From Elusimicrobiota bacterium (GTDB lineage Bacteria; Elusimicrobiota; Elusimicrobia; FEN-1173): a DNA stretch of 64,000 nt. The notes below the pieces were generated by a model. The model did not search any database. It had not been told where the DNA came from and was given only the letters and a program-made list of their open reading frames with translations. Positions within the stretch are counted from its first letter, which is position 1, and each line of letters opens with the position of its first letter. The stretch covers positions 16,981-80,980 of the forward strand of contig JADKCG010000018.1 in assembly GCA_016714745.1 (NCBI GenBank), in the 5' to 3' direction. A program made the position numbers and the translations under genes. Shown piece by piece: positions 27,233 through 28,486 of this stretch.

Positions 27233-27781
27233 GGGGTCGTGGTGTAGCTCGGTTAACACGCCGCCTCCACGCCCGGCATGGACGGAAACTTGGGGGTGAA
27301 AGTCCCCTGCGGGCCCTGTGGAGGGTACCGCTAGCTGATGGCAAGGGTTGCCCCGCGAGGGACAGCCGAAAGGAAGCCGTAGGCAAACTTCCGACCCAAG
27401 GAACACGAACTTCGTATGAGGGAATTTCCTTTTGGGCAAGTCCCGGTGGCGGACGAAGCCCCTTTCCATATTCATCGGGGAAATTCTAGACGAAGTGGGT
27501 GCATGGAAGGAAAGTGTCCGTTCTTATCCGGGGAGATCTGCCGGCCTGTCCCGCAAGGGACTAGATGGGGTTGACCACCTCGTCGATGGACCAGCAGAAG
27601 TCTGCAGAGGGCATAGTACCGCAGAGGTTTTGTGGGAAGGCCTGAAGTTAAGCGAAATCGCTTAGCATCCGCCGTATGCGGGCCCGCATGTACGGTGGTG
27701 TGAGAATAGGTGACCGCGAGGTCCCTTGAACTCGAACTGTCAAGGCGGAGACCGCGGGTTCAAATCCCGTCGACCCCGCCA
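27233..27781 (+). tRNA. tRNA-Asp (anticodon GUC) interrupted in the anticodon loop by a group II intron
   Basis: Exon 1 (27233-27266) is GGGGTCG-TG-GTGT-AGCTCGGTTA-ACAC-G-CCGCC-T. Exon 2 (27738-27781) is TGTCAA-GGCGG-AGACC-GCGGG-TTCAAAT-CCCGT-CGACCCC-G-CCA. Joined, they give a canonical cloverleaf with loop UUGUCAA, discriminator G73 and an encoded CCA. Confidence 0.75.
27267..27737 (+). mobile_element. ORF-less group IIC intron
   Basis: Evidence for the class IIC assignment:
- Domain V at 27669-27698 is CCGCCGTATGCGG-GCC-CGCATGTACGGTGG, with a CGC triad and a 2-nt bulge.
- CGCCCGGCATGG (27270-27281), GGGGGTGAAAGTCCCC (27292-27307), GAAAGGAAGCCGTAGGCAAACTTCCGACCCAAGGAACACGAACTTCGTATGAGG (27368-27422) and CAGCAGAAGTC...CATAGTACC closely parallel the Oceanobacillus iheyensis IIC intron as I remember it.
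- Domain IV is only a small hairpin (TAAGCGAAATCGCTTA), so there is no reverse-transcriptase ORF.
- The 3' end is ...GAAC, fitting the AY consensus. Confidence 0.8.
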
Positions 27782-27793
27782 TTTAAAATAAAA

Positions 27794-27831
27794 AGCCCTC
27801 GCTGATAAGTTCAGCGAGGGCTTTTTGTTTT
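27794..27831 (+). terminator. Rho-independent terminator following tRNA-Asp
   Basis: AGCCCTCGCTGA-taagt-TCAGCGAGGGCT forms a 12-bp stem, followed by TTTTTGTTTT and preceded by an A tract. Confidence 0.8.
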
Positions 27832-27989
27832 ATGGGTCGAGCCGCGGGATTTGAAGCCGACCCGAAGCGCCGCCATGAATGGCGGAAAAGGCCCCGCAGG
27901 GGCCGGCAGCGAGGGCGGCGGGCCTGCGGAGGAGCCGCGAAGCGGCGGGGGAGCAGGAAATCCCGTCGACCCCGCCATTTAAAATAAAA

Positions 27990-28027
27990 AGCCCTCGCTG
28001 ATAAGTTCAGCGAGGGCTTTTTGTTTT
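27990..28027 (+). terminator. second copy of the tRNA-Asp terminator hairpin
   Basis: The sequence is identical to 27794-27831 and lies inside the second repeat unit. Confidence 0.7.
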
Positions 28028-28486
28028 ATGGGTCGAGCCGCGGGATTTGAAGCCAACTCGCCCGCCGCCTTGAATGGCGGAAGAAGGGCGAGTGGCCGGT
28101 TCCGGAGGAGGAGCGAGCGACGGGGAGGAAAAATCCCGTCGACCCCGCCATGTAAGATGATCGTCGGCATGATCGAGAATTGTGACAGCGGATGGTTGGA
28201 AGAATTACCCAAAACTCTCATGGGAATAGGATCCCAAGAAATGTCAAAATGGACACGAACGTTCACAGGGACTTCACAGGGACGTCTTTAACTAAGTAAC
28301 TTATGATGGACATGTTAGAGCGAACATTGAGTTAAGAGGGGGAAATGGCGAGAATGACCCGCATGCCGGGCCCTTGGGCGCGCAAAGCGAAGCCCGGCGG
28401 GCGGGGTTTTGGCATAGAAGGAGCAGGACGAGAGATTTAAGTTAATTGGTTAAAGACGTGCCTTGGCTCCGTGATCCTCGTTTATA

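Follow-up and report, generated by a model that had tools for sequence, protein, structure and literature searches.

We analyzed a 64-kb stretch of DNA from an Elusimicrobiota bacterium (64,000 nt; contig JADKCG010000018.1, positions 16,981 to 80,980; hereafter, the window) and found that its tRNA-Asp gene is followed by a real pair of RtT-like, tRNA-matched structured elements, which belong to a large family absent from Rfam. RtT (rttR; RF00391) is the tandem element of the E. coli tyrT-tyrV locus. Both units probably belong to a family of small structured RNA elements that occurs widely downstream of tRNA genes and is fitted in each case to the host tRNA. The tailoring involves both ends of the element, a rule that is visible only by comparison.

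The 3′ end of each unit was an exact copy of the 3′ part of its own tRNA, and the copy always started at T-loop position 57 (TTC-RANTCC, with the hyphen marking the start). The length of the copy was 14–63 nt in the family and 20 nt in the window, sometimes extending through the tRNA trailer and terminator. At the opposite end, at least 7 nt preceding a conserved GAAGCC were the reverse complement of the start of the copy and varied with the tRNA; the 5′ end of the unit (GGGAUUU, followed by GAA) was thus the reverse complement of the T-loop and the 3′ strand of the T-stem of the tRNA. The two strands form a helix, P1, of 6–12 bp (median, 8 bp), for which the strand pairs included GGGATTT/AAATCCC, GGGAATC/GATTCCC, GGGATTC/GAATCCC, GGGACTT/AAGTCCC, GGGAGTC/GACTCCC, GAGATTC/GAATCTC, and CCAGGACTC/GAGTCCTGG. 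P1 covaried with the tRNA, as exemplified by pair 5/142 (UA, 36; AU, 20; CG, 8; GC, 3).

The comparative structure showed that P1 closes the molecule and that the acceptor 3′ strand with GCCA protrudes as a tail. The core consists of a three-way junction of P1, P2, and P4, in which P2 is GCCG-A-CCC/GGGCGGC and P4 is stacked on P1, together with a small helix P3 closing a variable hairpin and a second variable hairpin, P5. Structural statistics were obtained from an alignment of 69 units including both window units (alignment A3), with shuffled and slid alignments as controls. Paired cells accounted for 94.0% in the model, compared with 79.1% in the shuffled and 35–50% in the slid controls, and the covariation score of the model (0.355) was reached by none of 500 shuffles (0.113), the slid controls giving 0.05–0.08. 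Double changes were present in 20 of the 27 pairs, and four helices beyond P1 covaried. Inspection by eye also identified GNRA-type loops and tandem G-A mismatches in P4, which would fit an RNA rather than a DNA site.

The repeats in the window followed the same architecture. The 20-mer AAATCCCGTCGACCCCGCCA, which the original prediction had tied to the 3′ end of the tRNA, was present at 27762, 27958, and 28131, so that the three copies were 196 and 173 nt apart, as predicted; the rest of the window contained no other copy even when three mismatches were allowed (chance expectation, 0.04). The 77-nt segment said to be identical behind the first two copies was indeed so, and positions 27762–27858 and 27958–28054 formed a 97-nt block with 100% identity (98% over 103 nt). 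This block comprises the tRNA end, a terminator, and the unit 5′ end as far as GAAGCC; its hairpin is followed by ATGGGTCGAGCCGCGGGATTTGAAGCC, and the string GGGTCGAGCCGCGGGATTTGAAGCC also lies within it. The interiors were homologous with many indels, again as proposed, and the cores of units 1 and 2 shared 52% identity over aligned core columns. Covariance models (CMs) R1 and R2 scored 75.9 bits (E-value, 5.6e-15) and 66.9 bits, respectively, for unit 1, and 88.6 bits (E-value, 9.2e-18) and 80.8 bits for unit 2, in which P2 carries two compensatory changes (GCCAACUC/GAGUGGC).

Loci obtained from genome scans, for which one genome per species was used, were examined as 8-kb stretches and are denoted by L numbers. 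The core nearest to that of unit 1 was found in L254 behind tRNA-Ser (80% identity), and that nearest to unit 2 in L198 behind tRNA-Asp (62%). Together with the 52% core identity, these different nearest relatives point to separate acquisitions of units 1 and 2 at the same tRNA-Asp gene rather than to a tandem duplication, and such acquisitions would explain how identical junctions came to flank diverged cores. The earlier argument that simple slippage could not produce this pattern was therefore borne out, with the two cores coming from different subfamilies. The identical 97 nt would represent either a long target duplication at the insertion of core 1 or recombination within the conserved 5′ end.

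Tandem Repeats Finder detected nothing at the array because of the indels. An assembly artefact is unlikely, since the closest relative (L032) keeps the arrangement and many independent assemblies hold arrays of two or three units (L016, L123, L146, L155, L163, L219, and L239). L032, which shares 94% identity with the window in the intron, exon, and unit, lies on a contig of 354 kb with a name (tig...) suggestive of long-read assembly. Both L032 units are of type 1, a 45-nt insertion is present in the second, and the last copy is truncated.

Genome scans demonstrated that the element extends far beyond these two lineages. The 20-mer scan gave 109 loci, for the most part tRNA-Asp genes of Elusimicrobia, Atribacteria, and Omnitrophota; only four of the loci (L032, L016, L051, and L102) showed similarity beyond the tRNA, with the same conserved core behind it and then the 20-mer again at the end. 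A scan with the core motif GGATTTGAAGSCGACCCGA returned 61 loci, about 40 of which had the same element behind other tRNAs, and about a third were chance or coding matches, as expected for a 19-mer in 596 Gb. When the internal pattern was scanned with unconstrained ends, at least 117 loci with at least 126 units were recovered. The family comprises at least about 170 further copies, about 105–130 nt in length, in more than 120 species-representative genomes. Carriers included Elusimicrobia, Endomicrobia, Omnitrophota, Planctomycetia, Patescibacteria (one complete genome included), Aerophobetes, and Firestonebacteria, as well as a few proteobacterial and actinobacterial metagenome-assembled genomes (MAGs); one Omnitrophota MAG had at least five loci.

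Among 50 CM matches, 46 lay behind a same-strand tRNA or another unit, with the nearest unit 7–130 nt downstream of the tRNA and later units of arrays at distances of up to 308 nt. The element was carried by tRNAs of at least 17 identities, including Asp, Glu, Thr, Ala, Pro, Gly, Ser, Leu, Met, Lys, Arg, Gln, His, Trp, and Cys. Its distribution was sporadic, with the element present in 4–5 of about 100 loci sharing the same tRNA-Asp 3′ end, and it was kept in orthologous loci whose flanks were 67–80% identical.

No Rfam family covered the units in the window, permissive thresholds included, or in 17 other unit-bearing loci; permissive searches returned only terminator-driven leader matches and a T-arm fragment of tmRNA. 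A resemblance of the unit 5′ region (GGGAUUUG...CGAGGGGCGG) to the 5′ end of tmRNA was also considered and dropped, there being no tmRNA model match and no tag open reading frame (ORF). The element had no blastn match in phage and plasmid collections, and the two matches in a scan of viral contigs were judged by eye to be chance matches in coding sequence of mycobacteriophage type.

In L052, two tandem mini-versions of ~56 nt (775–830 and 892–948) behind tRNA-Asp matched the model weakly (23 bits) and may be internally deleted units. Several contigs ended exactly in the 20-mer or inside a unit (L001, 1–20; L020, 4603–4622; L070, 6366–6385; L111, 1–23; L139, 1–139); short-read assemblies thus seem to be interrupted by these tRNA-proximal repeats, and counts from MAGs probably fall short of the true copy numbers.

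The known system most similar to these units was RtT, which is arranged in the order tyrT-RtT-tyrV-RtT-RtT-RtT on the same strand. Both RtT and the window units stand in tandem directly behind a same-strand tRNA gene, and, just as the window units end in a 20-nt copy of tRNA-Asp, every RtT has the final 19 nt of tRNA-Tyr at its 3′ end. In the Rfam consensus structure, the 5′ sequence GGGGAAGGAU of RtT pairs with AUCCUUCCCC, the T-loop/T-stem part of the tRNA copy, and the copied CCA is the exact endpoint of the rttR RNA as annotated. The succession of parts in RtT is the GAAGC linker, a bulged-A helix, the motif CGAGCGCCAGCGAG, a hairpin, and the tRNA copy. Common to RtT and the new family are the GAAGC linker and the CGAGCGCC..AGCGAG motif; the family also possesses a comparable bulged-A helix (CG-A-CC/GGCG in RtT and GCCG-A-CCC/GGGCGGC in the family), and likewise has a 3′ hairpin before the tRNA copy. 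RtT differs in having additional inner helices and in lacking the covarying P4, and the new family differs in its phyla and in following almost all tRNA species. The units are linked to RtT by analogy, through the same architecture and matching rule; this link is architectural, and homology is not demonstrated.

RtT has been described as processed from the tyrT transcript, with a possible link to the stringent response (bioRxiv 10.1101/2024.07.17.603846), and its covariation has been recognized (bioRxiv 10.1101/2020.02.04.933952). The literature that we searched reported RtT only in enterobacteria (E. coli and Klebsiella), beside tRNA-Tyr. This agrees with the range known to us, which is confined to enterobacteria; RtT has been an orphan of the tyrT locus since the late 1970s, and we know of no mechanism for it and of no relatives outside enterobacteria. 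In secondary citations, RtT is described as '178 bp x 3.14'. Against this background, the RtT architecture now emerges as that of a large family with strong covariation, which is found in several phyla and downstream of tRNAs of almost every kind. The matching rule provides a testable handle on the role of RtT-type RNAs, on how a 100-nt non-coding element is retargeted between tRNA genes without destroying them, and on whether bacteria have retroposons resembling short interspersed nuclear elements (SINEs). Such tRNA-proximal repeats, missing from Rfam, can also be mis-annotated as attachment (att) sites or tRNA pseudogenes.

If they behave as RtT does in E. coli, the units would be transcribed from the tRNA promoter by read-through, and the tRNA 3′-end processing machinery would recognize the mimic of the tRNA end and cut the units out as discrete RNAs of about 110–170 nt, which may then have a cellular role. 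The absence of a terminator both between tRNA and unit and after the unit in 65 of 87 units was counted in favor of co-transcription with the tRNA. The notion that each unit has its own terminator was correct for the window, but it did not extend to the family, in which a terminator stood between tRNA and unit in 16 of 87 cases.

Several observations weigh against the reading of the units as processed, RtT-like RNAs. A strong terminator-like hairpin lies between the tRNA and each unit in the window, so that read-through must be substantial or the units are possibly poorly expressed. Distal tRNA copies are in some cases truncated (L032, 13 nt; L016, 16 nt; L120, 9 nt), which would be odd if the whole tail were functionally required, and the covarying helices could in principle form in single-stranded DNA too. 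The relationship to RtT was also faint in terms of CM scores. Models built from 29 or 69 units matched RtT in the 65.7 kb searched at exactly its own coordinates (767–880, 411–524, and 589–702), but the scores were just 8.2–9.8 bits (E-value, about 2–3). Conversely, RF00391 gave no match to window positions 27780–28160 at E-values up to 10 (threshold, 45 bits) and none at the gathering score in the 17 other unit-bearing loci. Because of these weak reciprocal scores, the units were filed as RtT-like and not as members of RF00391.

The core of the element is found at different tRNAs. The closest core lay at a different tRNA species in another genome for 53 of the 69 units, often with 92–95% identity, and in retargeted pairs such as Glu/Ser (0.93), Ser/Pro (0.95), Gly/Ser (0.95), and Leu/His (0.95), both P1 and the tail were re-matched each time. 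Near-identical cores at different tRNAs therefore show that the element retargets, and it switches tRNA hosts faster than its core diverges. Pfam searches of the ORFs flanking the array detected no integrase (M48 peptidase, RhuM, Fic, PLD, an IS200-like Y1 transposase, and LAGLIDADG being the matches), and clustering of ORFs around 40 loci revealed no enriched recombinase, reverse transcriptase (RT), or other enzyme, the top clusters being TPR/O-antigen ligase proteins and response regulators. No empty orthologous site was recovered by flank BLAST among the loci, and when the upstream Sel1-like protein was used as the query, no genome other than that of L032 was matched.

One explanation for origin and spread, which is compatible with a functional RNA, is that the units are SINE-like non-autonomous retroelements, the element RNA being reverse-transcribed at a nick in the T-loop (bottom strand, positions 56/57) to which its tRNA-like tail anneals; we regard this as a tentative possibility. 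The tRNA copy would then be a target-site duplication whose start is fixed and whose end varies, so that insertion would duplicate the tRNA 3′ end, leave the tRNA alive, and render the new copy automatically host-matched. Such a target-duplicating mechanism, with a fixed cut at 56/57 and a variable second cut, would account for the invariably perfect match and the intact tRNA. The start of the copy at position 57, its length of 14–63 nt (or 97 nt in the window), the perfect match to intact local tRNAs of at least 17 identities, the near-identical cores at different tRNAs, and the lack of a linked recombinase in the window flanks and around the 40 loci are consistent with this explanation, and the 97-nt block followed by a core without its own 5′ end would fit an insertion that was truncated at its 5′ end and accompanied by a long duplication. 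RT-dependent mobility in the lineage is implied by the ORF-less group II intron of the same tRNA gene. On the other hand, no RT or endonuclease partner was identified in the 8-kb loci, the re-matching of the P1 5′ strand to a new tRNA is left unexplained, the spacers between tRNA and unit are not conserved between closely related cores, the truncated distal copies would require secondary deletions, and no empty/filled orthologous pair was recovered. Target-primed retroposons of the SINE type or of the long interspersed nuclear element type, including R2 in rRNA genes, would resemble the units as small, non-coding, structured, and dispersed elements with target duplications of variable length, possible 5′ truncation, and co-transcription with a host RNA gene, whereas the units differ in having no known RT partner and no A-rich tail, and in targeting a precise T-loop position in bacterial tRNA genes. 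The classic signature of tRNA-targeting integrases is a set of direct repeats that derive from the 3′ end of a tRNA and start in the T-loop. As in tRNA-integrating islands and prophages, such repeats flank the inserted DNA here, the tRNA stays intact, and arrays can arise; serial site-specific or Campbell-type integration of tiny circular DNAs at a T-loop att site, with the repeats as attL/attR-type junctions and possibly remnants of the adjacent variable region, must thus be weighed. Duplications that include the tRNA trailer (61–63 nt; L110 and L127) would fit homology-driven integration, and the region downstream of the array, with RhuM, Fic, PLD, and an IS200-like transposase, is non-syntenic with L032. 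We nevertheless consider this unlikely. Neither the variable region of the window nor the surroundings of the 40 loci supplied an integrase, phage and plasmid collections held no match, and the units, at just about 110–200 nt, have a conserved interior with compensatory changes across phyla, unlike att arms. Furthermore, the same core serves many tRNAs with a perfect match to each, whereas a circle carrying a donor tRNA end would give chimeric tRNAs; the SINE-like mechanism was therefore ranked above integrase-type integration. The suggestion that the array consists of decayed att scars of an island does not fit the lack of a nearby integrase and the conserved, covarying core. Two others, serial insertion of miniature elements at the tRNA and small RNAs released by tRNA-processing enzymes, are both live parts of the picture. 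A bolder proposal, of which we are doubtful, is that the units and probably E. coli RtT form one cross-phylum mobile superfamily of tRNA-matched RNAs, apparently undescribed, which would insert by target priming at T-loop position 56/57 and be processed from tRNA transcripts as stable small RNAs. TnpB omega RNA offers a further parallel, in which a conserved scaffold is followed by a 3′ guide corresponding to the element flank: the units also have a scaffold and then a 3′ segment of ~20 nt identical to neighboring target DNA, but no nuclease or transposase gene adjoins them, and the first 7–10 nt of the 'guide' are sequestered in P1.

The original prediction had folded each unit as a degenerate tRNA with acceptor, anticodon, and T arms, and the units would accordingly be tRNA-Asp pseudogenes or tRNA-like minihelices; this interpretation is very improbable. 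The GGGTCG/CGACCC pairing on which it drew exists in the window, L032, and L016, where GGGTCGA/TCGACCC stacks on P1 to give an acceptor/T-like minihelix with a 3′ GCCA, and the single-sequence fold of unit 2 forms CGACGGGG/UCCCGUCG. However, the remainder of the family lacks this acceptor mimic; family-wide, the best upstream complement to the tail averaged ~3.6 nt compared with 3.4 nt after shuffling. The degenerate-tRNA fold with the enlarged T arm had no comparative support, with a pairing level of 60.9% (shuffles, 61.0%) and without covariation; the CCC of the 20-mer, assigned to that arm, pairs instead with the 5′ GGGAUUU in P1 and covaries with the tRNA. The supposedly retained anticodon stem CCGCC/GGCGG is just the tip of the variable P3 hairpin, which reads CUGCCC/GGGCAG in L016 and also occurs behind non-Asp tRNAs. 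Neither ARAGORN nor the Rfam tRNA model RF00005 called the units, and the presence of the same core behind tRNAs of at least 17 identities and the family-level covariation contradict the interpretation. Even less credible is a coding function. Like RtT, whose tpr ORF encodes a 29-aa 'protamine-like' Arg-rich peptide, unit 1 contains an ATG-initiated, Arg-rich ORF of 51 codons, and the units could in principle encode a small Arg-rich protein similar to Tpr. Unit 2, however, is open in a different frame, most family members lack a start codon there, core indels are not multiples of three, no recognizable ribosome-binding site precedes the ATG, and the arginine richness follows from the CG/AG-rich RNA sequence; the Tpr-like hypothesis was rejected since the reading frame is inconsistent across units. 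A longer frame was seen in L170 of the L032 genome, where 176 Arg-rich codons (3434–3964) span both units and both terminators; it is probably a by-product of the purine/CG-rich sequence.

Table. Coordinates of the tRNA-Asp gene, the terminator-like hairpins, and the RtT-like units in the window
Feature	Position	Strand	Remarks
tRNA-Asp(GTC) 5′ exon	27233-27265	+	33 nt; acceptor 5′ strand, D arm, anticodon-stem 5′ strand
Group II intron, ORF-less	27266-27736	+	471 nt; between tRNA positions 31 and 32
tRNA-Asp 3′ exon	27737-27781	+	45 nt; last 20 nt (27762-27781, tRNA positions 57-76) are copy 1 of the 20-mer
Terminator-like hairpin, spacer 1	27790-27826	.	Perfect, bidirectional, flanked by A-run and T-run; within block 27762-27858
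GGGTCGA	27834-27840	+	Complementary to TCGACCC of the 3′ tail; acceptor-stem mimic lengthening P1 across an internal loop
Unit 1, RtT-like element	27846-27977	+	Covariance models R1, R2; alignments A1, A3
Unit 1, P1 5′ strand	27846-27852		Followed by core P2-P5
Unit 1, P1 3′ strand	27958-27964		
Unit 1, tail	27965-27977		Copy of tRNA positions 64-76
Terminator-like hairpin, spacer 2	27986-28022	.	Second copy; within block 27958-28054
Unit 2, RtT-like element	28042-28150	+	Subfamily other than that of unit 1; ends in the third 20-mer (28131-28150)

The host gene of the array was itself unusual. Its identity as tRNA-Asp was correctly predicted, but the gene is not contiguous, being interrupted by a 471-nt group II intron, and for this reason ARAGORN called no tRNA at the array locus on the unspliced window sequence. 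In silico deletion of the intron and analysis of the joined exons with ARAGORN restored the canonical tRNA-Asp(GTC), and uninterrupted tRNA-Asp genes of L016 and L051 matched the 5′ exon with 100% identity in their 5′ half. The intron boundaries were set by comparison with intact tRNA-Asp genes. Rfam models matched the intron at 27349–27522 (RF02001; 112.8 bits) and 27561–27642 (RF01998; 46.7 bits), and domains 5 and 6 at 27667–27737 (RF00029; 35.3 bits, under the gathering score). A loop resembling exon-binding site 1, GGUGGC (27445–27450), is complementary to the last six exon nucleotides, GCCGCC. The catalytic triad of Domain V is CGC, not AGC, and the 5′ end of the intron is UCCACG, not GUGYG. 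The same intron and junction were present in L032 (about 6338–6808), and a scan for this tRNA-Asp 3′ end found no second locus in the L032 contig set; the interrupted gene may therefore have to be spliced. No case of a group II intron within a tRNA gene of bacteria is known to us, nor did a brief survey of the literature bring one up.

Directly upstream of the 5′ exon, two overlapping ORFs (26515–26859 and 26856–27224) lie in an AT-rich stretch and look like one frameshifted LAGLIDADG homing-endonuclease gene; Pfam LAGLIDADG_3 matched the former, and a YFDGDGN motif was recognized by eye in the latter. L032 retains about the last 180 nt of this stretch (27044–27227 aligns at 90%). Positions 27044–28060, which cover the LAGLIDADG remnant, tRNA, intron, and unit 1, were 93.7% identical to L032, whereas the flanking protein genes were 72–86% identical, suggesting that the tRNA block may have been recently exchanged or converted between lineages.

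Downstream of the array, positions 28200–38000 were not syntenic with L032 and encode an M48-type peptidase, two large Pfam-less proteins, a split RhuM/Fic pair, and a PLD-like protein, with the IS200-like Y1 transposase at 36595–37596. Between the array and the peptidase gene, an 11-nt direct repeat (TTCACAGGGAC x2) occupies 28262–28283, and a 26-nt inverted repeat with 88% complementarity (28278–28303/28438–28463) also lies upstream of that gene. In L016, the genes equivalent to window positions 38157–39381 are about 4 kb from tRNA-Asp.

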